64,000 nt of DNA, from the NCBI GenBank assembly GCA_022564195.1, contig JADFLW010000005.1, forward strand, positions 6,808 to 70,807, given 5' to 3'. This document shows positions 3,385 to 18,241 of this stretch, piece by piece (positions within the stretch are counted from its first letter, which is position 1; each line of letters starts with the position of its first letter). Under the pieces are notes generated by a model, which was not told where the DNA came from, made no database searches, and saw nothing but the letters and a program-made list of their open reading frames with translations. Origin of the DNA: Patescibacteria group bacterium. GTDB taxonomy: Bacteria > Patescibacteriota > Microgenomatia > UBA1400 > Chisholmbacteraceae. Position numbers and translations under genes: made by a program.

Positions 3385-3825
3385 TCAACCAGTGCTTTTA
3401 TAATCCTCAATTATCCTGTTATGATCCGCCGCGAGTCTTGGCAATTTGTCAAAGGAAAACCACTTTGCATCCAAGGCATCATCGCTCGCTCTTAACGCTT
3501 CTTCTGAAACCAAAACCTCGTAAACAATCGTCACCCGCTGAAAGGTGTCCCGCTTCGGGTCAGAATATATTCCCACAAACCGACCAAGCTTTCCAGTGAG
3601 TCCCGTCTCTTCCTCAAGCTCTCGCAGCACCGCCTCACGATCATCTTCATCCCAATCAAGCAAACCGCCAGGCAATGCCCAAAATCCTTTCTGCGGCTCA
3701 TTCCCGCGTTTAATCAACACCACTTTCCCATCACGCACAGCCACCGCATCAACGGCAATATTTCGCAAATATCTATGCCCACAATGCGGACACTTCTCCC
3801 CTCGCGTAAGAATCACTTTGCCCAT
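3385..3825 (-). CDS. NUDIX hydrolase with N-terminal zinc ribbon
   Basis: Nudix box GGLLDWDEDDREAVLRELEEETGL. N-terminal CPHCGH... Confidence 0.85.
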   Translation of the reverse strand: MGKVILTRGEKCPHCGHRYLRNIAVDAVAVRDGKVVLIKRGNEPQKGFWALPGGLLDWDEDDREAVLRELEEETGLTGKLGRFVGIYSDPKRDTFQRVTIVYEVLVSEEALRASDDALDAKWFSFDKLPRLAADHNRIIEDYKSTG

Positions 3826-3932: not shown

Positions 3933-6239
3933 TCACACAGCACAATAAGAGTATGCGCATTGCGGGCAGGTCGCGCATCCTTCCGCGAAGGTCATCGCAC
4001 TTCCACATTCAGGACAGACTCCTTCGAGCGCAGCAATCTTCTTCGTCTCCATTCTCTTGGATGCCGGGTGTTTTTCAGCGACGGTACTTAACACTTGATC
4101 CACCTTGCTCCCATCCCGATAAATCGTGATCCCTTTACATCCCAATCGCCATGCTAATAGATACGCGTCCTTCACATCCTTGCGCTTAGCGCTATGTTTA
4201 AAATTAATGGTCTTCGACACCGAATTATCACAATACTTCTGCCATGCAGCCTGAATTTTGACATGCCACGGCCAATCAACCTCATGGGTTGTCACAAACA
4301 CTTCAGCCATCTTCTTCGGTACACCTTTCAAACCACTGAGGCTCCCCTGCTTCTTAAGATGCGAAAGAATCCCTCGTTTCGTGAGCCCTTGAATTTCTCC
4401 ATTCTTAAGCTTAACATCCAAAACCTCCTCAAACACCGGATCCACGATTGTCATCGTCTTCGTCGCCCGATTCCTGCGATCATCCTCAAAGAACGTCCTC
4501 CGGGCAGTGACCAATGAGAATACTGGTTCAATACCTGCACTGCAGTTGGCAAAAAGGCTGATGGTGCCAGTCGGCGCGATCGTCAGCATCGTCGCATTCC
4601 GGTAGCGCTCTGCCGTACCCGCCCAGTAGCTGATATCAAAATTGGGAAAAACGCCACGCGCTTTTGCAAGCTCCATGGAAGCCGCTTCCGCTTCTCTTTT
4701 GATAAACTTTCCCAAGTGATCTGCCATCGCGACCGCTTCGCGGCTGCCATATGGAATGCCAAGCTTAAAAAGAAGATGGGCAAATCCCATCACCCCCAAA
4801 CCGATCTTGCGATTACCATGGCGCACCACCCGCTCAATTTCAGGAAGAATATAGGTATTCACCTCAATCATGTTATCCAAAAACCGAATCGCCGTGCGTA
4901 CCGTCTCCCCAAGATCATCCCAATCCACTTCCCAGCCAAATAGCCCGTGCGCATCGCGGCCTCGCTTGCCATTCTTCCGTTTGACATGCCTAGACAACAC
5001 GATGCTTGAAAGGTTACAACTCTCGTACGGCAAAAGCGGCTGCTCCCCGCATGGATTGGTGGCATCAAGCTTCCCTAGAGTGGGCGTGGGATTGTCCTGC
5101 TCCACGCGGTCCAAAAATATCATGCCCGGATCCCCGGTCTTGTGCGCCGCGGAAACAATCTCATCAAAAAGCCGACGGGCCTTCACAGTTACCGTGGTCT
5201 CACCGGTGCGCGGGTTCACCAAACGCCAGTCTTTGCCCTTCTCAACCGCTTCCATAAACGCATCCACCGCGCCCACCGAAATGTTGAAGTTCTTGATGTT
5301 CCCATCCTCTTCCTTCACCCGAATAAAATCATAAACATCAGGATGATCGGCATTAAGAATCGCCATGTTCCCACCCCGTCGCTTGGCACCCTGCAAGATC
5401 TTCGACAGAGCCGCCGAATACGCCTGTAAAAAGTCCACCGGTCCACTCGCCGCACCCGGAACGTTCTTCACCTTATCTCTGCACGGCCGGATCTTCGAAA
5501 AATTAAACCCAGTTCCACCGTTGTTTTTGTGAATGAGTGCCGCTTCCCCCAACGTTTTAAAAATGGAAGCAATGCTATCCTCAATCCCTAACACGAAACA
5601 GGCAGAAAGTTGCCCAGTCCCCCCATCATTGCCAGCCTCAAACATCGCCTTTCCGGAACAAACGAATTTCAATTTCACCATCCGCTCAAAAAATTCTCGC
5701 GCCATCCGCTCCACCTCTCCTTCGCTCTCCCAGCCAATCTCGGATTTTGCCATGTGCCGCGCCACCCGCCAAAGAAGCGCGCCCGGTGTCTCAATCACCC
5801 GACCTTGCATGTCGGTACGAAGATAACGCTTTTTGGCGACTTCCAACGAGTGCCCGGCCATCTCCGGCTCACGGATCTTCCACTCCGCTTCATCCGCTGC
5901 CTTTCTCGTGCTGTAGAGAATATAATACTTGGCCGTTGCGAAGTAGCCTGCTTGAGCTATAGCCGGCTCAACAATATTGCGGACTTCATCCACCGTGACC
6001 ATCCGGCGCCGACTAAAACCGTTCTGCAGTTTCGCCATCAGACCCTTGATAACTTTTGCCGCCTCTCGCTTCCCAAACTCTCCCGTGTCAGCTCCGGCGG
6101 CAATAACGCTGCGCTCGATCTTTGCCAGATCAAACGGCTCCTCCCGCCCATCCCGCTTTTTCACACCAAGAGAGCGCCTAGTCAGTTGCTCTCTTATGTC
6201 TTCAATTTGTTTTTTACCAAGAGCCAGGATTCCTTGCAT
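3933..6239 (-). CDS. nrdJ: class II ribonucleotide reductase, paralog 2, with ATP cone
   Basis: ATP cone (KKRDGREEPFDLAKIERSV). Core motifs LSACFVLGIED, NPCGEQPLLPYESCNLSS. C-terminal Zn ribbon CPECGSAMTFAEGCATCPQCAYSYC. Confidence 0.9.
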   Translation of the reverse strand: MQGILALGKKQIEDIREQLTRRSLGVKKRDGREEPFDLAKIERSVIAAGADTGEFGKREAAKVIKGLMAKLQNGFSRRRMVTVDEVRNIVEPAIAQAGYFATAKYYILYSTRKAADEAEWKIREPEMAGHSLEVAKKRYLRTDMQGRVIETPGALLWRVARHMAKSEIGWESEGEVERMAREFFERMVKLKFVCSGKAMFEAGNDGGTGQLSACFVLGIEDSIASIFKTLGEAALIHKNNGGTGFNFSKIRPCRDKVKNVPGAASGPVDFLQAYSAALSKILQGAKRRGGNMAILNADHPDVYDFIRVKEEDGNIKNFNISVGAVDAFMEAVEKGKDWRLVNPRTGETTVTVKARRLFDEIVSAAHKTGDPGMIFLDRVEQDNPTPTLGKLDATNPCGEQPLLPYESCNLSSIVLSRHVKRKNGKRGRDAHGLFGWEVDWDDLGETVRTAIRFLDNMIEVNTYILPEIERVVRHGNRKIGLGVMGFAHLLFKLGIPYGSREAVAMADHLGKFIKREAEAASMELAKARGVFPNFDISYWAGTAERYRNATMLTIAPTGTISLFANCSAGIEPVFSLVTARRTFFEDDRRNRATKTMTIVDPVFEEVLDVKLKNGEIQGLTKRGILSHLKKQGSLSGLKGVPKKMAEVFVTTHEVDWPWHVKIQAAWQKYCDNSVSKTINFKHSAKRKDVKDAYLLAWRLGCKGITIYRDGSKVDQVLSTVAEKHPASKRMETKKIAALEGVCPECGSAMTFAEGCATCPQCAYSYCAV

Positions 6240-6268: not shown

Positions 6269-8254
6269 TCAGGCTACATTGCAATAGCTGTAGGAGCAAT
6301 TCGGGCAGGTTGCACATCCATCCTGAAACACCATCGGCGTTCTGCAGTCCGGACAAATTCCCTCATCTCCGTTCACCACAACATAGCGATGTTCATGGAG
6401 TTCTTGCCGCACCTCACCGTTCACTTCTCCGTCGACAAGCTCGACTACTTCCGATGAGCCTCCAGAAGAAACCTTCCCAAGATTCAACACCTGCTGCGAA
6501 CGGCTTTTATCACGATAGATGGTAATGCCCATACAACCCGTGTCATAAGCCATAAGGTAGGCACGCCGGACATCCTCAACCGTTGCCGTCTCTGGCAAAT
6601 TAATGGTCTTGGAAACCGCGCTATCAAAGTATCGCTGCCATGCTGCCTGCATCTTGACATGCCACTTCCAACGAATATCATGGCTTGTTGCAAAAATTCG
6701 CTGAAGATCATCCGGTACTCCGTCGATATCCTGACAGCTTCCGGTCTGTGCAACCTCACTCAATATCCGTTCTCTACGCTTTCGACTCCTCACCCGGTTG
6801 GCAAGCTGTCGTTTAAACTCAGCGTTGAACTCGGTTAATTCGGTTTTACCGATATCCAAAATATTGCGTCTCGTGAAGCTCAATGCAAAAATCGGCTCGA
6901 TTCCAGAAGAGCAGGAAGCTAAAATACTGATAGTCCCGGTTGGCGCTATGGTCGTAACGGTGCTGTTGCGCATCGCAGGATATTTTTTCTCCCATCGACT
7001 ACCTTCAAAGGCAGAAAACGATCCGCGGGCGCGTCCCATTGCAACCGACGCATCCCGTGCCACGCGGTCTACGAACCGAGCGATCTTCCGCCCAATTGCC
7101 ACCCCTTCTGTTGAGTTGTAGGCAATACCAAGGCGAAACAGCAAATCGGCAAACCCCATCAGCCCCAAACCGATCTTGCGTGTTCTCTTCGACATCTCAT
7201 CAATTTCTGCCAAAGGATATTCACAAACATCAATGACATTATCCAAAAACCGAACCGCCAGCCTCGTTACTTCCTCCAATTTCTTCCAATCAACAAGCAT
7301 TTCAATATCTCTTTTCTCTTTACCCCTATGCTCTTTAGTCTTATTCTCTTTAGTCCTTTGAATAACAAATTTCGCCAAATTAATGGAACCTAAGTTGCAG
7401 CTTTGATAGGGCAGAAGTGGTTGCTCGCCACACGGATTGGTCGCCTCAATCTCTCCCAGGTGGCGGATAGGACAGGCTGCATTCATCCGGTCCAAGAAAA
7501 CCAGACCAGGATCCGCCACCTCCCACGCATATTCACAAATTTGTTCAAAGATCTCCCGTGCCCCAACCCGTCGGACGGTCTTGCCAGTGTGAGGCGCAAC
7601 CAAAGCGTAGGTCCCATCACGACGCAAGGCTTCCATAAAACTATCGGTGATGCCAACGGAAACGTTGAAGTTCCGGAGTCGTGTGCCACTGGCTTTCGCA
7701 ACGATGAACTCACGAATATCCGGATGGTCAACACGCAAGATCCCCATCATCGCCACCCTCCGACTCGACCCCTCGTTAATCACTTGAGCCATATGATCAA
7801 AAAGATCCATGTATGAAACAGGGCCTGAGGCAATCCCGCCCGTGCTCGACACCAAACTTCCCCGAGGCCGAAGACGAGAAAACGCGAAGCCGACACCCCC
7901 CCCTGTCCGCAATACAAGCGCTGCATCATGAAGAGTCTTGAAGATGCTCTCCAAGCCATCATCGATAGGAAGAACAAAACATGCCGAAAGCTGATTCACC
8001 CCATTACGACCCGCATGCATGAGTGTCGGGGAGTTGGGCAAAAATTCAAAACGTATCATCATCCGATAAAAGGCTCTGGCGTCAACCACCACATCCTCAC
8101 CATAGCTTCCACTCGCAGCCGCTATCGCATTGGCAACCCTGCGAAACATCTGCTCAGGAGTTTCAGTGACATTCCCTTTATCATCGCGCTTCAAATAATC
8201 GCGCATCTGAAGGACAGTTTTTGCGTTTTCCGATAGGCCTCTCATTACCAACAT
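6269..8254 (-). CDS. nrdJ: class II ribonucleotide reductase, paralog 3, lacking the ATP cone
   Basis: Core motifs LSACFVLPIDD, NPCGEQPLLPYQSCNLGSINL. C-terminal Zn ribbon CPDCRTPMVFQDGCATCPNCSYSYC. No N-terminal ATP-cone. Confidence 0.85.
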   Translation of the reverse strand: MLVMRGLSENAKTVLQMRDYLKRDDKGNVTETPEQMFRRVANAIAAASGSYGEDVVVDARAFYRMMIRFEFLPNSPTLMHAGRNGVNQLSACFVLPIDDGLESIFKTLHDAALVLRTGGGVGFAFSRLRPRGSLVSSTGGIASGPVSYMDLFDHMAQVINEGSSRRVAMMGILRVDHPDIREFIVAKASGTRLRNFNVSVGITDSFMEALRRDGTYALVAPHTGKTVRRVGAREIFEQICEYAWEVADPGLVFLDRMNAACPIRHLGEIEATNPCGEQPLLPYQSCNLGSINLAKFVIQRTKENKTKEHRGKEKRDIEMLVDWKKLEEVTRLAVRFLDNVIDVCEYPLAEIDEMSKRTRKIGLGLMGFADLLFRLGIAYNSTEGVAIGRKIARFVDRVARDASVAMGRARGSFSAFEGSRWEKKYPAMRNSTVTTIAPTGTISILASCSSGIEPIFALSFTRRNILDIGKTELTEFNAEFKRQLANRVRSRKRRERILSEVAQTGSCQDIDGVPDDLQRIFATSHDIRWKWHVKMQAAWQRYFDSAVSKTINLPETATVEDVRRAYLMAYDTGCMGITIYRDKSRSQQVLNLGKVSSGGSSEVVELVDGEVNGEVRQELHEHRYVVVNGDEGICPDCRTPMVFQDGCATCPNCSYSYCNVA

Positions 8255-8284: not shown

Positions 8285-8740
8285 CTATGTGGACTGCTCC
8301 AGCTGTTTAATCTCCCGTTTGAAATCGTCAATATCTTGAAAATCCCGATACACGCTCGCAAACAGCAAATAGCCAACGGGGTCCAACTTGCGTAAACGGG
8401 TGATCACCAACTTCCCAACCTCCCAACTTTTTATTTCTTTATTCTTCCTGCGCCTAATCTTCCGCTCAACATCCTCAATGAGTTTCTCAATCTGCTCGAT
8501 GGATACTGGCCGTTTCCAAGTAGCCTTCATGAGTCCCTTTTTAATTTTCTCTCGATCAAATGGCTCGCGAGTTCCATCTTTCTTAAGAACGACAAGATCA
8601 ATGCCCTCAATCCGCTCGTACGTTGTGAACCGTTTCTCGCACACGTTGCATTCGCGTCGCCGCCTGATGCTTTCTTCATCCTCAGTCAGTCTGCTCTCCA
8701 AAACGCTGCTATCACGCTGCCCGCAATACGGACATTTCAT
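8285..8740 (-). CDS. nrdR: transcriptional repressor NrdR
   Basis: N-terminal Zn ribbon MKCPYCG...CNVCEKRF followed by an ATP-cone. 151 aa. Sits immediately upstream of RNR paralog 3. Confidence 0.9.
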   Translation of the reverse strand: MKCPYCGQRDSSVLESRLTEDEESIRRRRECNVCEKRFTTYERIEGIDLVVLKKDGTREPFDREKIKKGLMKATWKRPVSIEQIEKLIEDVERKIRRRKNKEIKSWEVGKLVITRLRKLDPVGYLLFASVYRDFQDIDDFKREIKQLEQST

Positions 8741-8786: not shown

Positions 8787-8802
8787 ACACTAGATGTAGT
8801 GC
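8787..8802 (-). promoter_or_regulatory. NrdR box (operator) upstream of nrdR
   Basis: ACACTAGATGTAGTGC matches the 16-bp palindromic NrdR-box consensus acaCwAtATaTwGtgt. It lies about 45 nt upstream of the nrdR start, next to SD GGTAGGAG. Confidence 0.55.
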
Positions 8803-9006
8803 TTAAATAAACGCTATGCCACTACCCCTAGGCTGTCAACCATCAATTACTGTATCAAAGGAGATCGTCCAGAGTACAGGGGTCGGATGAGCAAACAGTG
8901 ACGAGTCTCCGTCCACATCCCTTCCTCAATCCCACAAACCACCGCGACCCAATTGAAACATTTTGTACTCAATAAAGATAAAATTACCCATAAAAAAGTG
9001 AAGTCT

Positions 9007-9027
9007 CCCCGGCCTAAGAGGCCGGGG
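9007..9027 (-). terminator. GC-rich hairpin, possible terminator, in the 470-bp non-coding region
   Basis: CCCCGGC-CTAAGAG-GCCGGGG is a perfect 7-bp GC stem. On the minus strand a T6 run lies 9 nt downstream, so the terminator assignment is weak. Confidence 0.3.
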
Positions 9028-9210
9028 CTTCTATCAATTGATAGACTGAAACTCCGTACCGAAAGCCCCAAGAAAACTATCATTCATCCCCGCGTTGAAG
9101 CTCCTCTGCCTAACTTTCCTAAAGCGCAAATCCCCGGAGCGTGGGCTTTCGCAAAGGGGACTAACAGCACGAGGCTTTCTGGTACTGGAGTAAAAAGAAA
9201 TACGGAAATT

Positions 9211-10524
9211 TTAATCAAACGTAACTTCGCAATGTTTGCAAATATCACAAGGCCCAACCATCGTATTCTCAGCGCGACAAACACGACAGGTGCCCGAATG
9301 ATAGGTCCATGACTTCTCACTGCTTCCAAACGATACTCCATCTAATGCAAGAACGGTAAACCCGTCCAAGGAAAACCCAATCGACGCAATCATTCCCGGC
9401 GGGCAACCACCACCCCCGACTCTCTGCGTTTCAAGATCTCCATAGCGATTAAGGAGATGTGCTTGTAGTCGTCCCGCTTCTATTACAACTGAATCCGCCG
9501 CGACACCCCCTTCGAAGCCCCTTAAGTGAAAACTCCTATTAACGTCCCGCCTCCATCGACAATCTTCCGTCAACTGATGAGCAGTGAGAATCTGCCCGCA
9601 CTCCGCAAAGACTTTGACAGCCCGCCGTGCAAAACTGTACGCCAGCTCTAATTCCGAGAGGCCCTTCTGATCCAAGCCCATTGAATGGGTACGCAGTTCC
9701 TCTCGTAAAGCTTCTGCTAAAAATGCAGCCGATTCCCGTAGCTGCGGCTCATAGGATGCAAAAGTTTCGGGAGCGAGACTCGAACCGAAACCAACACCAG
9801 AAACAACAAATCGATCATCGCTGTTGGCAATTTCATCAATCCGCGCAACAACATCATCAGCCGTTTGCATTATTGGGTTGTCCGAAATATCAATAGGACT
9901 TGAAACAAAAAACTCTGGAGTACTCTGCGAATCAGGAGGAGCGGCAACCCACTCAGCGAAACCAGACAGTTGAGCATGACCCTCAAGCGACAGCGCATTC
10001 TTATAAAACATCACACGGACTCGCCTACCTGCTCCTGGATCTCCTTCGACTCGATACACATACGTCAAGCTCACGCCGGTATAACCATCCTCTGCCGGTC
10101 CTGGAGGATAACTAAGAACGAATGTCGAACCATCGGGACAATCAAGGCATCTGCGTCGAAGCTCCCGCATGCCAACAAGCTCTGCGAGTTCTCGCTCGTA
10201 CGGCTTGCCAGCCGCCCTTCTCTTCTTTACTCCATTCAATGTAATGCGAGTGATGTCACCGAACGCTCGATGGTCAGCGGTAGTTAAAATCAGCCGTTCG
10301 TTTTCTCCTTCGCTAAACTCAAACTCAAAACTGCCTCGCCGCAGAACATCTTCTCCAACGGCGGTGGAAAAGTTAGCATAAAGACGTCGCTCAATGCTCT
10401 CTGTTACTCCACCAACGCGCAGGGCGGCATCAAACTCATCACGAAAATCAAAATGGGGATTAGTTACTTCAAGAACATTCATCCCCTCATGAAGATAAAC
10501 ACCTCTGCGTTCTGCTGCAGCCAT
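9211..10524 (-). CDS. hypothetical cytoplasmic protein with C-terminal Cys-rich zinc-ribbon
   Basis: 437 aa with no recognisable domain. C-terminus is CRVCRAENTMVGPCDICKHCEV. Start has GGAGA SD. Preceded by copy A of the duplicated element. Confidence 0.6.
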   Translation of the reverse strand: MAAAERRGVYLHEGMNVLEVTNPHFDFRDEFDAALRVGGVTESIERRLYANFSTAVGEDVLRRGSFEFEFSEGENERLILTTADHRAFGDITRITLNGVKKRRAAGKPYERELAELVGMRELRRRCLDCPDGSTFVLSYPPGPAEDGYTGVSLTYVYRVEGDPGAGRRVRVMFYKNALSLEGHAQLSGFAEWVAAPPDSQSTPEFFVSSPIDISDNPIMQTADDVVARIDEIANSDDRFVVSGVGFGSSLAPETFASYEPQLRESAAFLAEALREELRTHSMGLDQKGLSELELAYSFARRAVKVFAECGQILTAHQLTEDCRWRRDVNRSFHLRGFEGGVAADSVVIEAGRLQAHLLNRYGDLETQRVGGGGCPPGMIASIGFSLDGFTVLALDGVSFGSSEKSWTYHSGTCRVCRAENTMVGPCDICKHCEVTFD

Positions 10525-10556
10525 AAAAAATCTCCTGTACCCGACAGGAGGAATAC

Positions 10557-10580
10557 AAAGAAAACCTTCCCGAAGGAAGG
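10557..10580 (-). terminator. intrinsic terminator-like hairpin at the gene-proximal end of copy A
   Basis: The minus strand reads GGCCTTCCTTCGGGAAGG followed by TTTTCTTTG. The 3' arm of the hairpin contains GGAAGG. Confidence 0.5.
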
Positions 10581-10593
10581 CCTAATCTTAAAC

Positions 10594-10624
10594 TAGACGC
10601 TTAACGCTAGGCGCTAGACGCTAA
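10594..10624 (-). repeat. heptad tandem array TAGACGC-TTAACGC-TAGGCGC-TAGACGC-TAA, array 1 of copy A
   Basis: Four tandem 7-nt units TWRRCGC read on the plus strand. Duplicated at 10689-10719 and in copy B. Confidence 0.7.
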
Positions 10625-10688
10625 TTTATGCTCCTGCTCGGAAGAAAAGTTCCTCAAGCAACGTTCCTGACTCCTTAGTTCCTAACCC

Positions 10689-10719
10689 TAGACGCTTAAC
10701 GCTAGGCGCTAGACGCTAA
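10689..10719 (-). repeat. heptad tandem array, array 2 of copy A
   Basis: The same 31-nt sequence as 10594-10624. Confidence 0.7.
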
Positions 10720-10747
10720 ATTACAGTTGCGGCACAGCCCCAGGTTC

Positions 10748-10779
10748 CTCGCCTTCGCCGGAGCTCCGGCGAAGGCGAG
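10748..10779. repeat. perfect 32-bp palindrome CTCGCCTTCGCCGGAGCTCCGGCGAAGGCGAG
   Basis: The sequence equals its own reverse complement, with 16-bp arms. It lies about 25 nt 3' of the membrane-protein stop codon. It is flanked by a GGTTCC direct repeat. The equivalent segment in copy B is degenerate. Confidence 0.7.
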
Positions 10780-10803
10780 CCACTGGGTTCCGCTGCTACG
10801 AGG

Positions 10804-11391
10804 TCAAATAGTTATCAAACGTACAATGTCTAGTTTTCGTATCGATTGCCGGTTTAAAAAAGTGCGCCATATCTTGCTTCTAACAAACATCCGCAAAAAC
10901 TCCACCACGACAAACCCTGCCGGAACAAACAACAACGTGCTTGCCATCTGCATCCTAAGAAACGGCAACCCGTTGATGTATGACAGCAAAAGTCCCGAAA
11001 AATCTCGAGAATACATTCCCCAACCGTCAAGCAGCCACACCCCAAAGTTCGTCCACGAATAGAAGAACAGCGTTGCGCCCACACCCACGCCCGTCGCCAA
11101 AACCACGCGTTTCGCGCCGCCTGGGTTCCTCCGTCTCCCAAACACACCACTTGCGACCACTGCCGGAATCAGGAATCCGCTCCAGGTGAACAAGAAGATG
11201 TTCGTATTACCAAGAATCGTGTCAGAAAGCACCATCACCAAGAACACCAACCATAACGCCCACCGTCGCCCCAAATAAAAACTTGTTAAAAGCATCACCA
11301 TGGTTACCAACTCCACATTAGGTCCCAAATCAAAAACAACCCGTTCCAAAAAGGCCAACAAAACCAAAGTGATAAAGAAAAGTATTCGCAT
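10804..11391 (-). CDS. polytopic membrane protein, possibly an ECF-transporter S-component-like substrate-capture protein
   Basis: About 195 aa with 5-6 predicted TM helices (MRILFFITLVLLAFL..., LFTWSGFLIPAVVASGVF, ASTLLFVPAGFVVVEFL). Start chosen to give a 4-nt gap after the upstream stop. The ORF is open to 11481. Confidence 0.5.
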   Translation of the reverse strand: MRILFFITLVLLAFLERVVFDLGPNVELVTMVMLLTSFYLGRRWALWLVFLVMVLSDTILGNTNIFLFTWSGFLIPAVVASGVFGRRRNPGGAKRVVLATGVGVGATLFFYSWTNFGVWLLDGWGMYSRDFSGLLLSYINGLPFLRMQMASTLLFVPAGFVVVEFLRMFVRSKIWRTFLNRQSIRKLDIVRLITI

Positions 11392-11395
11392 TAAA

Positions 11396-11815
11396 TTATT
11401 TCGGCTCAATATATCTCCACTCAATGAGATCGCCATCGCGTACAACTTTCTTATCCGCCGCAACATCCCCTGACTCTCCATTCACAATGTAAATCCAGGC
11501 CCGCTCAGCCAAGCTCTCCTTTCCTCCAATTGCCTTCACAAAAATCCCAAAATCATACTGCTGCGAATCAATAGCAAGTCCTTCCTCACGAGCAACATGC
11601 TCCAACGCTCCATACACCGTACTTTCTGCAGGCACCCCAGAATAAGTAGAAATATTCCCGTCGCCAAAATCCAAAACCAGTGTTACACCTTGACGAACCT
11701 GTTCAACGGCAGCAGGAGGTGGAACCTCCATCCCAATCCCAGGCTGTCGACGCAACGCCCGCCACCCACCTCCGACAAGAACAAGAACAAAAAGAGCCAA
11801 AAGAAATTTTTTCAT
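11396..11815 (-). CDS. secreted DUF4430-like (transcobalamin-like beta-grasp) protein, putative cobalamin-binding
   Basis: Signal peptide MKKFLLALFVLVLVGGG. The C-terminal motif WIYIVNGE...WRY is typical of DUF4430. The family link is from memory, not a search. Confidence 0.5.
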   Translation of the reverse strand: MKKFLLALFVLVLVGGGWRALRRQPGIGMEVPPPAAVEQVRQGVTLVLDFGDGNISTYSGVPAESTVYGALEHVAREEGLAIDSQQYDFGIFVKAIGGKESLAERAWIYIVNGESGDVAADKKVVRDGDLIEWRYIEPK

Positions 11816-11816
11816 A

Positions 11817-11839
11817 ATAAAAACCTTCCCGAAGGAAGG
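11817..11839 (-). terminator. terminator-like hairpin of copy B, overlapping the ribosome-binding site of the DUF4430 gene
   Basis: The minus strand reads GGCCTTCCTTCGGGAAGG-TTTTATT-ATG. GGAAGG in the 3' arm sits 7 nt from the start codon. Confidence 0.5.
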
Positions 11840-12050
11840 CCTAATCTTAAACTAGACGCTTAACGCTAGGCGCTAGACGCTAATTTATGCTCCTGCTCGG
11901 AAGAAAAGTTCCTCAAGCAACGTTCCTGACTCCTTAGTTCCTAACCCTAGACGCTTAACGCTAGGCGTTAGACGCTAAATTACAGTTGCGGCACAGCACC
12001 GGATTCCTCACTCCACCGAAGCTCCGGCGAAGACGAGCCACCGGTTTCCG
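11817..12050 (-). repeat. copy B of the ~234-bp duplicated element
   Basis: See copy A. Its terminal hairpin and T-tract abut the ATG of the DUF4430 gene. Confidence 0.75.
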
Positions 12051-12157
12051 CTGCTTAAAGTCCACTTGTCAATGAAATCACGATAACAACACTATCAACA
12101 CGCTGTCAATAGACAGTTCCGTCCTTCGCTTCCTCTAGCTCTCTTCTTACGCTTGCT

Positions 12158-12865
12158 CTATTCCTCCTCTAGCTCTCCCTCAACCCCTTCCATCTCGGTC
12201 TCCTCTTGTCCATTTCCTGCCTCTAGAGCATCTTCAGAATCGCCCACTGCACCCTCATCTTCTTGAACCTGCTCCCCGACCACCTCCACAGCACGTTGGT
12301 ATCCACTCCTACTCTTTTCCAGAGACTCCTCCACGCTTGATTTTGCTTCATCAGGAACCCTGGCTAGAATACCAATGAGCACCTTCTCGTGTTTCCTGGA
12401 AGCACGCACGAATCGCTCATAAAACTCCTGGGTATCCTTACCAGCCTCGGTCGAGCGCTCCGCTTCCCCGACGGCTCGCTCAAGATAGATCTCCGCCTTC
12501 GTAACAGTCGATGAAGCCAAGCCAGCCTTGCCTTTCTCCGCCAGATCCAAAGCGGAAGCTATGCGCTTATCTCCAAAGTGAAGCATCAACTCAGCTCGAG
12601 CCAGGGCATCCCGCGTCAGCCAAAGCTGGATGCGATCACGAATCATCTTCAGAAAATACAACGGGTGATCAGGCAAAATTCCAGGGTACGGCAATGGATA
12701 CTCATCTGCCGCTTCTGCCAAGCGCTCTTCCACCACAACCTCCTGAGACTCCGCTTCGCTTTGAGCGGCAAGGGTAACAAGTGCAGGCCTTGAACGCCAA
12801 ATGGAAACGCCGGCCACAGAAACACCAAACAGGAAGACAAAAAGTACAAGCACGTTTCGCTTCAT
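12158..12865 (-). CDS. secreted or membrane-anchored DUF5667-like protein with an acidic C-terminus
   Basis: N-terminal anchor MKRNVLVLFVFLFGVSVAGV, an alpha-helical region and an acidic tail EETEMEGVEGELEEE. Resembles CPR-type DUF5667 proteins. Confidence 0.5.
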   Translation of the reverse strand: MKRNVLVLFVFLFGVSVAGVSIWRSRPALVTLAAQSEAESQEVVVEERLAEAADEYPLPYPGILPDHPLYFLKMIRDRIQLWLTRDALARAELMLHFGDKRIASALDLAEKGKAGLASSTVTKAEIYLERAVGEAERSTEAGKDTQEFYERFVRASRKHEKVLIGILARVPDEAKSSVEESLEKSRSGYQRAVEVVGEQVQEDEGAVGDSEDALEAGNGQEETEMEGVEGELEEE

Positions 12866-12896
12866 GCTACTCTCACCTCCAATCTGCTCTCTTGGG

Positions 12897-14132
12897 TTAT
12901 TCTCGAACCCCCAAATACTCAACGATCACTCGTGCATAAATCTCAGTTACTTTCCGTAAACTCTCAAGATCCACCCATTCATTCACACCATGATGGCCCT
13001 CGCCATCTGGACCAAACCCACTCACCGTAGGAATATCATGCGTGACCAACATCCATGCATCATTCCATGGTCCCGAACCCTCAATCTTTGGTGCAAACCC
13101 CAAAACCTCCTTTGTGTGTGTAGAAAGAAGCTCCACAATTTCTTCCTTACGATCAATCTCAACTGAAGGAACAAAGAGAAGATCTTCAAACTCATACCGA
13201 AGCCCAGGAATTCCAGCAAGTTTCTCACGGATCCAAATCTTCACCTGTTTATCGCTATTCCCTGGCATGAGACGGACATCACCATAAGCAACGCACTTAT
13301 CCGGTACACTACTGATAGAAACACCTCCAGAGATCTTGGTCGGAAAGGTTAAAACCGGAGATCGTCTTTGAAAAGCTCGCGCTGGCTTAAAGGGGATCTC
13401 AAGATTCTCCAAAGCAATAATCACTCGCGCCATATCAAGAATCGCGTTGCGCCCCATCTCCTTGCGCTCCCAAGCCCGACGCCCAGTATGAATCGCCTCC
13501 CCAAAGACAGTCAGCTTAAACCGGTAACCTCCTCTGGTACCAATCGAGATTGTATCAGTTCCAGGCTCTCCTATAATGGCAACGCGGGCGCGAATACCCT
13601 GCCCAAGCAGATAGCTTGTTCCAAACTCACTGCATCCACCCGGTTCTTCATCTACGGTAAATTCAAGGACGAGCCTTCCATCCAAGGCAACACCCGAATC
13701 CAAAAGCGCTTTCACCGCATAAACATAAGCCGAAAGAGCACCTTTCATATCAGCCGCGCCAACCCCATACAGTTTTCCATCACGCACAGCACCGGAGTGC
13801 GGATCAAGCGTATATCCCTCCCCAGCAGGTGCCGTGTCCATATGACCATTGAGAATCATACTCTTACGAAACCGCCGAGGTCCCCAATAACACACCACAT
13901 TTGGACGCTTCTTCGAAACTCCCAAGCGCCGGGGCGGTAGTCCAAATGAGCGCAATCGTTCATAAATAAGCTCCGAAACACCCAATTCGATCGGCGTCTT
14001 GGGGCTTGACTGCTCGGGGGTATACGGATTTTCGCTGTCTTCGCGCACGAGAGCCGAGGCAAAACTTGTCTGCTCGCTAAAGTTTTTTGAAACGACTGCG
14101 GAAATACGTTGGAAAAGCCGTGAAGAAATCAT
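12897..14132 (-). CDS. M20-family metallopeptidase (ArgE/DapE/CPG2-like)
   Basis: Motifs NGHMDTAP, GVGAADMKG and a TVDEEPGG-like segment are the metal-binding residues of the M20 family. Confidence 0.8.
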   Translation of the reverse strand: MISSRLFQRISAVVSKNFSEQTSFASALVREDSENPYTPEQSSPKTPIELGVSELIYERLRSFGLPPRRLGVSKKRPNVVCYWGPRRFRKSMILNGHMDTAPAGEGYTLDPHSGAVRDGKLYGVGAADMKGALSAYVYAVKALLDSGVALDGRLVLEFTVDEEPGGCSEFGTSYLLGQGIRARVAIIGEPGTDTISIGTRGGYRFKLTVFGEAIHTGRRAWERKEMGRNAILDMARVIIALENLEIPFKPARAFQRRSPVLTFPTKISGGVSISSVPDKCVAYGDVRLMPGNSDKQVKIWIREKLAGIPGLRYEFEDLLFVPSVEIDRKEEIVELLSTHTKEVLGFAPKIEGSGPWNDAWMLVTHDIPTVSGFGPDGEGHHGVNEWVDLESLRKVTEIYARVIVEYLGVRE

Positions 14133-15835: not shown

Positions 15836-18241
15836 ATGGCAAAGAAACGCCGCACAAAATCAAAAAAGAAAACAGCCAAAAGCAGCCGCGCTCGACGCGA
15901 TCTTTCTCACTCTCGTCGTGACGCAAAAGGACGTTTCGCTTCAAAATCCAAAAGACAAAAAAACATCCTTCAATTACAGAGCTTCCTAAAAGAATACTGG
16001 TATGTGTTCGCGTCACTCGCCCTCATCGGCAGCGTAAGCTACGTCTTAATTTTCAACGATCTTCCTTCACCCCGCAAACTCCGACAGGACGACGCCTTCT
16101 CTGCCTCCACCAGAATCTTCGATCGCAATGGAAATCTTCTATTTGAAATTTTTGCCGAACGCAACCGCACTCCTGTCTCGTTGAACGAACTCCCGGACTA
16201 CGTGAGCCGTAGCCACATCGCAATTGAGGACAAAAATTTCTTCCAGCACCACGGGTTCGCCACAGAGGGATTGTTAAGAGCAACGTTCAACACGCTCTTT
16301 CGCAGGAAACTGCAAGGCGGGTCAACGATCACCCAACAACTGATAAAAACCGCCCTCCTGACACCGGAGCGCACAATTAGAAGAAAAATCCGCGAGGCAA
16401 TCCTAGCCCTTCTGACAGAACTCATCTACTCCAAAGACCAAATCCTGGAAATGTACTTAAATCACGTCCCGTATGGTGGGACGGCATGGGGAATAGAAGC
16501 CGCAGCCCAAACCTACTTCGAAAAACCTGCCAGCAAACTAACACTGGCTGAAGCGGCGATGCTTGCCGGCCTCCCAGCCGCACCAACGCGTTACTCCCCA
16601 TTTGGCGTCAACCCGGATCTGGCAAAACGACGACAGACACTCGTCCTCTCTCGAATGGTCGAAGACGGCTACATCAGCAAAGAGGAGGCAAGAAACGCCG
16701 AACAAGAAAAACTTCAATTCACAACCCCCACAGTTGACATCAAAGCCCCACACTTTGTGCTGTGGGTCAAAGAACTGCTTGTTGAAAAATACGGAGAACA
16801 TCTCGTCGAACGCGGGGGGCTGAAGGTCACGACAACCCTGGACCTTGAGCTCCAAGAGTACGCCCATGCATCAGTGGCTGCAGAAATTAAAGAGTTAGAA
16901 GGAATGAGAGTCGGGAATGGCGCGGCACTGATCACAAAGCCTAAAACGGGAGAGATCCTGGCAATGGTAGGATCGAAAGACTTCTTCGATTTTGAAATTG
17001 ACGGGCAAGTCAATGTCACCCTTCGCCCACGCCAACCGGGAAGCGCCATCAAACCAATAAACTATGCAACGGCGTTTGAGACCGGCCGCTTAACCCCCGC
17101 TTCTTTGCTTCTGGACATTCCAAGCTGCTTCTTCGTCCCTGGACAGCCATTGTACTGCCCGAGAAATTACGACTACGCCTTTCATGGTCCAGTGCAAGCC
17201 CGCTTCGCCCTAGGAAATTCATACAACATCCCAGCTGTCAAGGTTCTTGCAGTCAACTCCGTAGAAAGTATGATCGCTACAGCCAGCGCCATGGGAATCA
17301 CAGGCTGGAAGAATCCCGATCAATACGGACTCTCTTTAACGCTAGGGGGTGGGGAGGTTCGTATGACAGACATGGCAGTGGCATTTGGCGTGTTTGCAAA
17401 TCAGGGAGTGACAGTCCCGCTCCAACCGATATTAAAAGTGGAAGATCAGCAAAGAAACATTTTAGAGGAGTACAAACCGCACCAGATAGAGGAACGAGTT
17501 GCAAACCTGAATAAAGAAAATACGCTGACACAAAAAGAACAAGAAGACGAGACAGGGCCAAAAAGAGCGCTCTCCCGAGAAACTGCCTACCTCATCTCCC
17601 ATATACTATTAGATAACAATGCACGCACGGCAGCGTTCGGAGCATCGTCTCAGCTTGTGATTCCCGGAAAAGTCGTATCGGTAAAAACCGGAACCAGCAA
17701 TGATCTTCGAGACAACTGGACCATCGGTTTCACGCCCCATGTCTTAGTCTCAACTTGGGTGGGAAATAACGATAACACGCCAATGCACCCCTACCTCGTA
17801 TCCGGCATCACAGGTGCTGCACCAATCTGGCACGAACTCATGGAAAAAGCACTCGAGAACCAAGAACCCGAATGGCCAGAAAAACCAGATGGTATCATCG
17901 GCATGAATGTCTGCACGCTGACAGGTCTCCTTCCCAACCCAGAAAACCCGTGCACCACCAGACATGAATTTTTTATCAAAGGGCTTGCGCCCAAGGGAGT
18001 CGACCAAAGCCGCCGTGGAATCTGGATTAAAAAAGACACGAATCTGCCGCCCGAAGAAGGAGATTTTGAGAACCTAGAACTCAGGGAACATCTCGTAGTC
18101 TCCGACCCCTTCGTCAAAGACTTCTGCCTGGACTGTCCATGGCCACAAGAAATCGACGAAAACGGTCAGCCAACCGGAAAGATCCGCTACCCACAAATAA
18201 CAATCAATCCTGCCTCGACATCGATAGAGGGCGTATTTTAG
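15836..18241 (+). CDS. class A penicillin-binding protein (PBP1A-type transglycosylase/transpeptidase), paralog 1
   Basis: GT51 motifs IAIEDKNFFQHHGF and GGSTITQQLIK. Transpeptidase motifs QPGSAIKP (SxxK), SYN and KTGTS. N-terminal TM helix. Confidence 0.9.
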   Translation: MAKKRRTKSKKKTAKSSRARRDLSHSRRDAKGRFASKSKRQKNILQLQSFLKEYWYVFASLALIGSVSYVLIFNDLPSPRKLRQDDAFSASTRIFDRNGNLLFEIFAERNRTPVSLNELPDYVSRSHIAIEDKNFFQHHGFATEGLLRATFNTLFRRKLQGGSTITQQLIKTALLTPERTIRRKIREAILALLTELIYSKDQILEMYLNHVPYGGTAWGIEAAAQTYFEKPASKLTLAEAAMLAGLPAAPTRYSPFGVNPDLAKRRQTLVLSRMVEDGYISKEEARNAEQEKLQFTTPTVDIKAPHFVLWVKELLVEKYGEHLVERGGLKVTTTLDLELQEYAHASVAAEIKELEGMRVGNGAALITKPKTGEILAMVGSKDFFDFEIDGQVNVTLRPRQPGSAIKPINYATAFETGRLTPASLLLDIPSCFFVPGQPLYCPRNYDYAFHGPVQARFALGNSYNIPAVKVLAVNSVESMIATASAMGITGWKNPDQYGLSLTLGGGEVRMTDMAVAFGVFANQGVTVPLQPILKVEDQQRNILEEYKPHQIEERVANLNKENTLTQKEQEDETGPKRALSRETAYLISHILLDNNARTAAFGASSQLVIPGKVVSVKTGTSNDLRDNWTIGFTPHVLVSTWVGNNDNTPMHPYLVSGITGAAPIWHELMEKALENQEPEWPEKPDGIIGMNVCTLTGLLPNPENPCTTRHEFFIKGLAPKGVDQSRRGIWIKKDTNLPPEEGDFENLELREHLVVSDPFVKDFCLDCPWPQEIDENGQPTGKIRYPQITINPASTSIEGVF

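Follow-up and report, generated by a model that had tools for sequence, protein, structure and literature searches.

Two near-identical direct repeats, here called copy A and copy B, flank a two-gene cassette on the minus strand of a 64,000-nucleotide stretch of DNA from a Patescibacteria metagenome-assembled genome (GenBank assembly GCA_022564195.1, contig JADFLW010000005.1; hereafter the window). Judging from sequence and structure comparisons, we consider that each repeat is, with a probability of roughly 85%, a complete, functional and repressing cobalamin (vitamin B12) riboswitch of the Rfam family RF00174, read from the minus strand. The repeats are a divergent pair of a known class, and no new class of RNA. 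Their family membership, helices, internal complementarity and gene context are established computationally.

Both repeats align to the cobalamin riboswitch model

Scanning the whole 64-kb window at Rfam gathering thresholds returned no tRNA, tmRNA or Rfam family. RF00174 (clan CL00101, gathering threshold 31.5 bits) surfaced only with E-value thresholds, under which it was the only match with E < 0.1 in the window; for each copy it scored best and no other family was credible, one overlapping lower-scoring match from the same clan being suppressed in its favour. Copy B matches over the full length of the model (28.9 bits, E 5.5e-5, positions 11899–12073), and copy A matches model positions 47–167 (22.8 bits, E 0.003, positions 10663–10791).

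The alignment to RF00174 contains the canonical blocks GGAA-P4-GUG...AAUCC-P4′, GCUG-GCCGCAACUGUAA and GAGUCAGGA-AC. Each copy has the J3/4 GAA, the P5-L5-P6 block GCCGCAACUGU and the B12 box AGYCAGGA, all of them placed in the alignment with the model. The aptamer is a standard cobalamin core, made of P1, J-GAA, P4 with the L4 T-loop, P5 with L5 (UGCCG), P6 (CUG/CAG) and the B12 box AGUCAGGAAC. Minimum-free-energy folds give P1, P4, P5 and P6 together with the downstream hairpins, at z = −3.8 for copy B and −5.5 for copy A. The conserved core blocks are invariant or almost so in 18 family members; the segment GCUGUGCCGCAACUGUAA is identical in 14 of 14 sequences, and in the set of 18 two members carry one substitution each.

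The original prediction had recognised no known RNA family in the repeats, which is not borne out, since RF00174 lies just below threshold here and above it in homologous relatives. An Rfam covariance-model search had been proposed as a check; run here, it in effect assigns the repeats to a known family, an outcome that the prediction had listed as speaking against itself. Its broader suggestion of a riboswitch or cis-acting leader with a corrinoid ligand is supported, and its alternative of a GGA-rich protein sponge is rejected.

Arrangement of the repeats in the window

The repeat search of the window found two direct-repeat pairs, 10561–10750 versus 11820–12009 (190 nt, 98%) and 10753–10797 versus 12011–12055 (45 nt, 87%), at a spacing of 1258–1259 nt. 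In a global alignment in RNA (minus) orientation, the copies differ by one mismatch over 178 consecutive columns, located in array 1 of copy B, and by 11 differences over the 59 columns of the 5′ block (81% identity). Upstream of P1 and AGCAGCGG, the similarity of the two copies is not significant (local score 13 versus a shuffle mean of 14.3). Between the repeats lie a DUF4430 gene and a gene for a DUF6580 membrane protein.

The layout described in the original prediction was reproduced. The direct repeats surround the cassette as stated, and each repeat stands immediately 5′ of a minus-strand start codon, with the U-tract of copy B continuing into the AUG (GGUUUUUAUUAUG). Copy A contains the perfect 32-nt palindrome that had been reported, and Tandem Repeats Finder (TRF) recovered the heptad arrays as four period-7 arrays of 4.4 copies each. 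The five clustered GGA motifs are present within ∼55 nt in each copy, and the GC hairpin with its U-tract was called terminator-like in both copies (10583–10562 and 11842–11821).

The 31-nt unit of the heptad arrays occurs four times in the window against a chance expectation of 0, with arrays 1 and 2 identical in copy A and one base apart in copy B. Within each riboswitch, this 31-nt hairpin occurs twice, 95 nt apart (10593–10623 and 10688–10718; 11852–11882 and 11947–11977). The flanks of the arrays are alike as well (UAAUUUAG versus UAAAUUAG; GGUUAGG versus GAUUAGG), which indicates an internal duplication of about 45–50 nt.

Relatives and covariation

Loci fetched from other genomes and metagenomes, numbered with an L below, place the window copies in a lineage of bona fide cobalamin riboswitches. 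Four relatives with a 7-nt L4 and the same core, L5/L13 motifs and terminator exceed the 31.5-bit threshold: L131 (37.6 bits; a close relative with 92% DUF6580 identity), L125 (39.1), L130 (42.6) and L128 (43.9). This indicates that the window copies belong to the same lineage and score below threshold because of their insertions, namely the 31–32-nt hairpin in the L4 T-loop and the unusual P6 extension. The leaders of L001–L003 carry an insertion at the same place in L4 and give sub-threshold RF00174 matches, while the more decorated leader of L124 is unreported by Rfam even at E ≤ 1. Members of the same riboswitch subclass precede a DUF4430 gene in L005 and a cobalamin adenosyltransferase gene in L014.

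The metagenome scan used a pattern of core, B12 box and CCGAGCAGGA and yielded L124, L125/L126, L127/L128 and L130; a further match, L129, was rejected as a chance match in a GC-rich open reading frame (ORF). A contig scan with GCCGCAACTGT...CAGGAAC was too generic, its listed matches coming from many phyla and some being coding, and it added L005, L014, L042, L074 and L089. Among the matches listed, those with a B12 box are cobalamin riboswitches.

To quantify pairing, fixed-length segments (the inner 6 bp of P1, J-GAA, P4/L4, P5-L5-P6, the B12 box and P13/L13) were excised and aligned, at first for 14 and then for 18 sequences. In the hand-assembled 18-sequence alignment (A6), 96.8% of cells pair, versus 35–47% when the 3′ partners are slid by 1–3 columns. 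Both sides have changed in 16 of 25 pairs, and 0 of 500 shuffles attained this count or any other of the measures; these changes fall in P1 (5 of 6 pairs), P4 (5 of 5), P13 (4 of 4), P6 (one, a U-A to C-G change in L134) and the kissing loop (one).

Comparison of the two window copies gives independent support for the structure. P4 is CCCAG/CUGGG in copy A and ACCGG/CCGGU in copy B, with two compensated pairs, and the outer P1 5′ strands, which lie outside the repeat, are CCUCG(U)AGC in copy A and CUUUAAGC in copy B (CCUCGU versus CUUUA); the 3′ strand opposite them, GCUUGAGG, is the same in the two copies and pairs with either version.

Peripheral insertions and GGA motifs

The aptamer carries two lineage-specific decorations, the hairpin in L4 and a P6 extension built from a 7-nt tandem repeat. 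The long stem of the original prediction is placed by the RF00174 alignment as a 31–32-nt insertion in the L4 loop, so that the palindrome is an L4 insertion; heptad array 1 is the P6 extension, and array 2 is a linker hairpin that caps the antiterminator. The usual L4 T-loop is a 7-nt UGNNAAU that docks on P6/L6. L4 is 7 nt long in relatives without the insert, and the bases flanking the insert in the T-loop are retained in the window copies (UGG...GAAY) with the hairpin between them. The close relative L131 lacks exactly the palindrome segment (UGG^GAAU). L001–L003 have insertions of 32–64 nt at the same position, and in L124 the L4 insertion is placed differently. The equivalent of copy A in L131 has neither the 32-nt palindrome nor the heptad array.

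The P6 hairpin of L131 and L124 is CCCCGC...GCGGGG instead of a heptad array; looser UAGCG repeats occur in L124 and L002 in the linker only, and three consecutive UAGCGNN units were found in none of the fetched loci. This distribution suggests that the linker hairpin was copied into P6 recently in the lineage of the window, where the 31-nt hairpin doubles as P6 extension and antiterminator cap. Long-range pairing between arrays 1 and 2 was considered as a regulatory state and rejected, as folds keep the local hairpins and comparative support is absent.

An extended version of our reading, in which the interrupted L4 and the heptad hairpin define a cobalamin riboswitch subclass specific to the candidate phyla radiation (CPR) and the paired copies serve as portable homology arms for the cassette, appears unlikely to us. 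If it held, another arrangement would take the place of the normal peripheral docking, with possible effects on folding or corrinoid selectivity, and homologous recombination could carry the DUF4430–DUF6580 cassette into or out of a B12-regulated locus. The decorations and the serial layout of two switches are minor variations, and the locus offers a natural case of a hairpin inserted into an otherwise conserved L4 T-loop.

Expression platform and proposed switching

All members share a downstream platform in which YUCC-CGAGCA-GGAG, 21–57 nt past the B12 box, is followed by a variable linker and by ACCUUCC-loop-GGAAGG-U(5–8). The first of these segments forms the P13 hairpin, whose loop L13, CG(A)GCA, could form five pairs with L5, UGCCG, leaving one bulged A. 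L5 and L13 are complementary in 18 of 18 sequences. In L132 both sides have changed (L5 UGCGG with L13 CUAGCA, a C-G to G·U change), and L074 has one U·G pair. Of the fetched loci, all 15 that combine L5 UGCCG with the context CUGUGCCGCAACUGU have CGAGCA 21–57 nt after the B12 box (CGAGCG in L074), a co-occurrence expected by chance at about 4% per locus; loci with L5 UGCCG are L001–L003, L005, L014, L042, L074, L089, L124–L128 and L130.

The 13-nt P13 segment UUCCGA[GC]AGGAG has 11-bp complementarity to UUCCUUCGGGA, which covers the 5′ arm and loop of the terminator and the first bases of the 3′ arm. Cutting the nascent RNA of the window at ...UUCGGGA makes the antiterminator the most stable fold (minimum free energy −24.6 kcal/mol). 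For L125 and L130, unconstrained folding already gives the antiterminator as the minimum, and the terminator returns when P13 is forced.

From these features we infer that both copies would act as kinetic, repressing transcriptional switches; ligand binding by both copies, the sign of regulation and the L5–L13 kissing loop are predictions of this model. With B12 bound, L5 would kiss L13 through five base pairs and one bulged A, locking P13 and allowing the terminator to form, such that transcription would stop and/or the ribosome site would be hidden by the 3′ arm GGAAGG, the likely Shine–Dalgarno sequence of the DUF4430 gene. Without B12, P13 would open and its 13 nt would pair over 11 bp with UUCCUUCGGGA, forming an antiterminator capped by the linker hairpin. 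Copy B, with its promoter, would shut off the putative B12-uptake pair of DUF4430 and the S-component-like DUF6580, while copy A would shut off a Zn-ribbon protein, gene X (Table 1).

The promoter-like site of copy B is the only promoter-scan match near either copy, and transcription of copy B is predicted to start near 12073, where the Rfam match begins. In L001–L003, TTGACA stands at the equivalent position (by eye). P1 of copy A begins directly after the stop codon of DUF6580. Copy A also has a second terminator-like hairpin, H2, whose 3′ arm contains the AGGAG Shine–Dalgarno sequence of X and which is complementary to the P13 segment as well; the arrangement of T1 and H2 is also found in L003.

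Table 1. Features of the two leaders and of the genes around them (positions in the window)
Feature	Coordinates	Strand	Basis
Copy B: promoter-like site, TTGACA-18-TATCGT with upstream TG	12080–12109	−	promoter scan, 10/12 matches
Copy B: complete leader (aptamer, P13/L13, linker hairpin, terminator), ending at DUF4430 AUG	11816–12073	−	RF00174 match, fold
Copy B: P1 5′ strand	12049–12060	−	Rfam alignment, fold
Copy B: L4 T-loop insert, 31-nt hairpin (UGG^...^GAAU)	12007–12037	−	Rfam alignment; −16.9 kcal/mol
Copy B: core GCUGUGCCGCAACUGUAA (P5, L5 = UGCCG, P6 5′ strand)	11980–11997	−	sequence conservation
Copy B: P6 extension, stem UUUAG/CUAAG with heptad-array hairpin 1	11933–11979	−	fold, TRF
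Copy B: B12 box (GAGUCAGGAAC) and P1 3′ strand (CGUUGCUUGAGG)	11911–11932	−	Rfam alignment, fold
Copy B: P13 hairpin CUUC-CGAGCA-GGAG, L13 pairing with L5 (predicted); whole segment is antiterminator strand	11890–11903	−	complementarity, folding
Copy B: linker hairpin, heptad array 2 (same 31 nt as array 1), antiterminator apex	11849–11886	−	
Copy B: intrinsic terminator T1, AGGCCUUCC-UUCG-GGAAGGUUU and U-tract	11816–11842	−	terminator scan, folding
Copy A: complete leader, DUF6580 stop codon to AUG of the 437-aa gene	10525–10803	−	RF00174 match, fold
Copy A: P1 5′ strand / 3′ strand	10791–10803 / 10652–10663	−	
Copy A: P4	10783–10787 / 10739–10743	−	
Copy A: L4 T-loop insert, perfect 32-nt palindrome	10748–10779	−	repeat search; −31.1 kcal/mol
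Copy A: core	10721–10738	−	
Copy A: P6 extension with array 1	10674–10720	−	
Copy A: B12 box	10663–10673	−	
Copy A: P13/L13	10631–10644	−	
Copy A: array 2 linker hairpin	10590–10627	−	
Copy A: terminator T1	10557–10583	−	terminator scan
Copy A: second terminator-like hairpin H2, UCCUCCUGU-CGGG-UACAGGAGA and U6	10525–10552	−	terminator scan
Cassette behind copy B: DUF4430 (11396–11815, N-terminal hydrophobic anchor) and DUF6580 (10804–11391)	10804–11815	−	Pfam
Gene X behind copy A: 437-aa protein, C-terminal CxxC...CxxC	9211–10524	−	no Pfam/NCBIfam family
NrdR	8285–8740	−	
Three class II ribonucleotide reductases	633–2900, 3933–6239, 6269–8254	−	TIGR02504

Weighing the riboswitch reading against alternatives

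Several observations count against two functional, repressing riboswitches. Both copies score under the Rfam gathering threshold, and the match of copy A is partial (model positions 47–167). The L4 T-loop is reported to be highly conserved and to direct global folding (PMC6158498), and its interruption could impair function. The promoter scan found no passing site upstream of copy A. The kissing-loop bases are nearly invariant, such that their covariation amounts to one G·U and one U·G change, and the pairing counts come from a hand-assembled alignment in which the P4 5′ strand was picked partly by complementarity, at offset 0 or 1, and therefore lean somewhat towards the structure. At full length, the terminator state of the window copies, at −31.2 kcal/mol, lies below the antiterminator state at −25.5 kcal/mol, so switching would have to be kinetic.

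In one alternative, only a single copy is a working riboswitch, and the other, redundant or decaying, is a recent segmental duplicate or a by-product of cassette insertion or gene conversion. Copy A would be the likelier nonworking copy, since transcripts reaching it have already passed copy B; its upstream side offers no scan-passing promoter, with the DUF6580 stop abutting P1, it is the lower scorer in Rfam (22.8 bits, partial), and the near-identity of the 3′ 178 nt leaves little time for selection. We nevertheless regard this as quite unlikely, because the 5′ differences preserve structure (P4 carries two compensations, the transitions in the L4 hairpin keep G·U pairs, and the independent 5′ strands of P1 both pair), all invariant core positions are intact in both copies, every relative has a riboswitch directly before its X-like gene, and L134 and L131 show the layout of two riboswitches too. 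A weak promoter-like TAGACA-16-TATTTG also lies in the 3′ end of DUF6580, where L131 has TAGCCA-16-TATATT (by eye). The two copies could instead be cobalamin riboswitches with another mechanism, either activating (ON) or acting on translation only by hiding the Shine–Dalgarno sequence, with a hairpin that is no terminator. An activating corrinoid riboswitch is on record (PMC10327014), the terminator 3′ arm doubles as Shine–Dalgarno sequence with the AUG of copy B within 8 nt, and the terminator state is favoured thermodynamically without constraints. Such a mechanism seems very unlikely given that the 3′ side of P13 in the window complements the 5′ arm of the terminator, as in the repressing design, that B12-uptake genes are the classic repressed targets, and that a hairpin followed by 5–8 U fits the intrinsic-terminator pattern in all close relatives.

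The direct repeats might also be primarily recombination or mobility structures around the cassette and not regulatory RNAs, which could explain why the locus of L001–L003 and L124 has only one riboswitch and no cassette, why the cassette is found in unrelated neighbourhoods and why the contig ends of L131 share 23 nt. As a replacement for the riboswitch reading we find this highly improbable: each repeat forms a whole riboswitch, and the divergence between the two preserves structure; they are direct, with no inverted terminal repeats or target-site duplications and no transposase or integrase found between or beside them; and L125 and L128 have the cassette at the same locus with one riboswitch, which fits ordinary operon evolution. 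As an account of origin, mobility is compatible with the riboswitch explanation. The five GGA motifs within about 55 nt would suit an RNA that sequesters a CsrA/RsmA-like protein, but we give this hardly any credence, since every GGA is a conserved riboswitch element: they map to the B12 box (CAGGAA), the P1 3′ strand (GAGGAA), the P13 3′ strand (CAGGAG) and the base of P6, and predicted folds place them in aptamer helices and junctions and in P13, outside hairpin loops. Only two of the five are kept in relatives, and the Rfam match to CrcZ reaches 12.6 bits versus a threshold of 95, on the opposite strand.

Returning to two functional riboswitches, the near-identity of the 3′ 178 nt points to a recent duplication or gene conversion, while the older 5′ parts would have diverged by compensatory changes. 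The pair could have arisen either by insertion of the cassette with duplication of the riboswitch, or by copying of the X riboswitch to a place before DUF4430, followed in either case by gene conversion of the 178 nt. The L131 contig, 1260 nt long, has the same 23 nt of linker (GGTAAAGCTTACGCTGAGCGTCG) at 1–23 and 1238–1260, and these identical ends suggest that two riboswitch copies are present there (an assembly break), or possibly a circular form.

Comparison with characterised riboswitches

The window copies share with RF00174 the core sequence and architecture (J-GAA, P4/L4, P5/L5, P6 CUG/CAG and B12 box) and a gene context related to B12. They differ in that J6/3 is one base shorter (CAGGAAC versus CAGGAGAC), L5 is UGCCG where the consensus is UCCCG, the P6 extension is a single hairpin of heptad repeats, and the L4 T-loop carries the 31–32-nt hairpin. 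A likeness to the adenosylcobalamin class II family RF01689 (AdoCbl-II, env8HyCbl) is the bulged nucleotide predicted in L13, which is known from the env8 kissing loop (PMC10327014). In addition, the CPR loci L132 and L134, which are above the RF01689 threshold, share the L5/L13 motifs of the window and precede the same cassette. RF01689 has a compact aptamer with a J1/3 T-loop and no P6 extension; in contrast, P6 is extended by 47 nt in the window copies, which within the clan match RF00174 best.

The regulatory logic proposed here resembles that of the repressing corrinoid riboswitch of Priestia megaterium metE, in which L5 (consensus UCCCG) kisses L13 and stabilises P13, a model tested by mutation (PMC10327014). 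In the window, however, the complementarity to the terminator takes in the entire P13 hairpin, its loop as well as its two strands, over 11 bp that reach across the 5′ arm and loop into the first bases of the 3′ arm; P13 has only 4 bp, the terminator 3′ arm doubles as Shine–Dalgarno sequence, and the model is computational. In the activating corrinoid riboswitch of the same study, P13 shares sequence with the terminator 5′ arm. Like the tandem architectures of Sudarsan et al. 2006 (as cited in PMC9600662), the locus has two riboswitches per transcription unit; unlike them, the window copies are two genes apart and each would gate its own gene or genes, giving serial control, a layout also seen in L134.

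Genes behind the two copies

The genes behind copy B and behind subclass relatives are related to B12, a context that supports a cobalamin riboswitch. In vertebrate transcobalamins, DUF4430 forms the C-terminal domain (PMC4350170). An AlphaFold model of DUF6580 built from 46 sequences (predicted local distance difference test, pLDDT, 89.7) has the six-helix fold of the S-component of energy-coupling factor (ECF) transporters, with Foldseek probabilities of 0.9–1.0 to 4huq_S, RibU and ThiT and the top TM-scores, 0.61/0.66, to the B12 transporter BtuM (8c7p). The model thus resembles ECF-CbrT (6FNP, PMC5997447) and BtuM (PMC6072759) in fold, but not significantly in sequence: CbrT is the sole PDB sequence match of the family profile, at E 3.4, not significant alone, and the pairing with DUF4430 lies outside the characterised CbrT and BtuM systems. 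Taken together, DUF4430 and DUF6580 are a putative pair for B12 capture and uptake. One family member (P0071) also has a Pfam ECF_trnsprt match, and in the window the last ∼28 residues of DUF6580 extend beyond the Pfam match, the ORF reaching P1 of copy A. The window ORFs that were scanned against Pfam yielded no ECF module, and our literature search on DUF6580 and on B12 riboswitches of Patescibacteria found nothing.

The DUF4430–DUF6580 pair recurs in other CPR genomes behind above-threshold AdoCbl-II riboswitches, at 38.8 bits in L132 and 45.9 bits in L134. In L134, a second riboswitch (37.6 bits) stands right after DUF6580 and before a 300-aa Zn-ribbon protein, reproducing the layout of the window. 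The two L134 riboswitches (3476–3550 and 4570–4641; distant CPR genome GCA_043821545.1) flank the cassette and are not near-identical.

Gene X, behind copy A, has only four other 90%-identity clusters among 5.8 billion proteins, and a profile search found about 82 clusters at 50% identity among 1.84 billion proteins; none of the 10 clusters tested contained a Pfam domain. Its AlphaFold model is poor (pLDDT 55, 5 sequences), and Foldseek against the PDB gave nothing credible (best E 0.02, TM 0.13). Same-position genes in L124, L126, L128 and L134 share only a Zn-ribbon-like C-terminus with X. BLASTP similarity of X to the analogues in L124, L126 and L134 is not significant; hhalign matched L126 weakly (E 0.003, probability 9.5%) and L124 not at all, and we do not claim homology.

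The contigs of the four other 90%-identity clusters of X, L001–L004, read DUF5667 – leader – X – NrdR – class II ribonucleotide reductases (RNRs) without DUF4430 and DUF6580, the L004 contig starting 54 nt upstream of X with the leader outside it, and L124 (M20 peptidase – DUF5667 – leader – 437-aa protein – NrdR – RNR) has the synteny of the window minus the cassette. L125 and L128 read DUF5667::DUF4430 fusion – DUF6580 – leader – X-like gene, and L126, which has the leader of L125, runs on to NrdR and RNR. The fusion proteins, encoded at 1856–2698 (−) in L125 and 9545–10435 (+) in L128, tie the DUF5667 gene of the window (12158–12922, upstream of copy B) to the same B12-related module.

Downstream of X lie NrdR and three paralogous class II, adenosylcobalamin-dependent RNR genes in a row, all of which pass TIGR02504; L001 has the same three-RNR layout. 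The NrdR/RNR operon seemingly has its own promoter and is probably not controlled by copy A, as suggested by a strong hairpin after X and by TTGACA and an NrdR-box-like palindrome upstream of nrdR. This would resolve what looked like a paradox, an enzyme that needs B12 being repressed by it. The GC hairpin, CCCCGGCC-UCUUA-GGCCGGGG at 9007–9027 (−) in the 470-nt gap between X and nrdR, has a U-run ∼14 nt on and was not flagged by the terminator scan. The NrdR-box-like palindrome, CACTACATCTAGTG (8788–8801), and TTGACA (about 8834–8839) were identified by eye. The two small ORFs in the gap (8847–9083 and 9084–9341) had no family matches.

Implications

The locus illustrates that curated covariance models miss B12 riboswitches of Patescibacteria with inserted peripheral hairpins, as with L124, which implies that B12 regulons are under-called in these reduced, auxotrophic bacteria. 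It ties DUF4430, DUF6580, DUF5667 and an orphan Zn-ribbon family of ∼80 clusters to B12 physiology, beside B12-dependent RNRs, and presents an expression platform whose entire P13 hairpin complements the terminator. In practice its value is chiefly for annotation, and the understanding of how cobalamin riboswitches work is unchanged.

Elsewhere in the window are two genes for PBP1-type transglycosylase/transpeptidases (15836–18241 and 20053–22539), a GH18 gene, a split transketolase and pentose-phosphate genes. Group I introns that pass Rfam thresholds lie a few kb from the cassette in L133 (6409–6629, 56.7 bits) and L134 (5636–5822, 67.8 bits).

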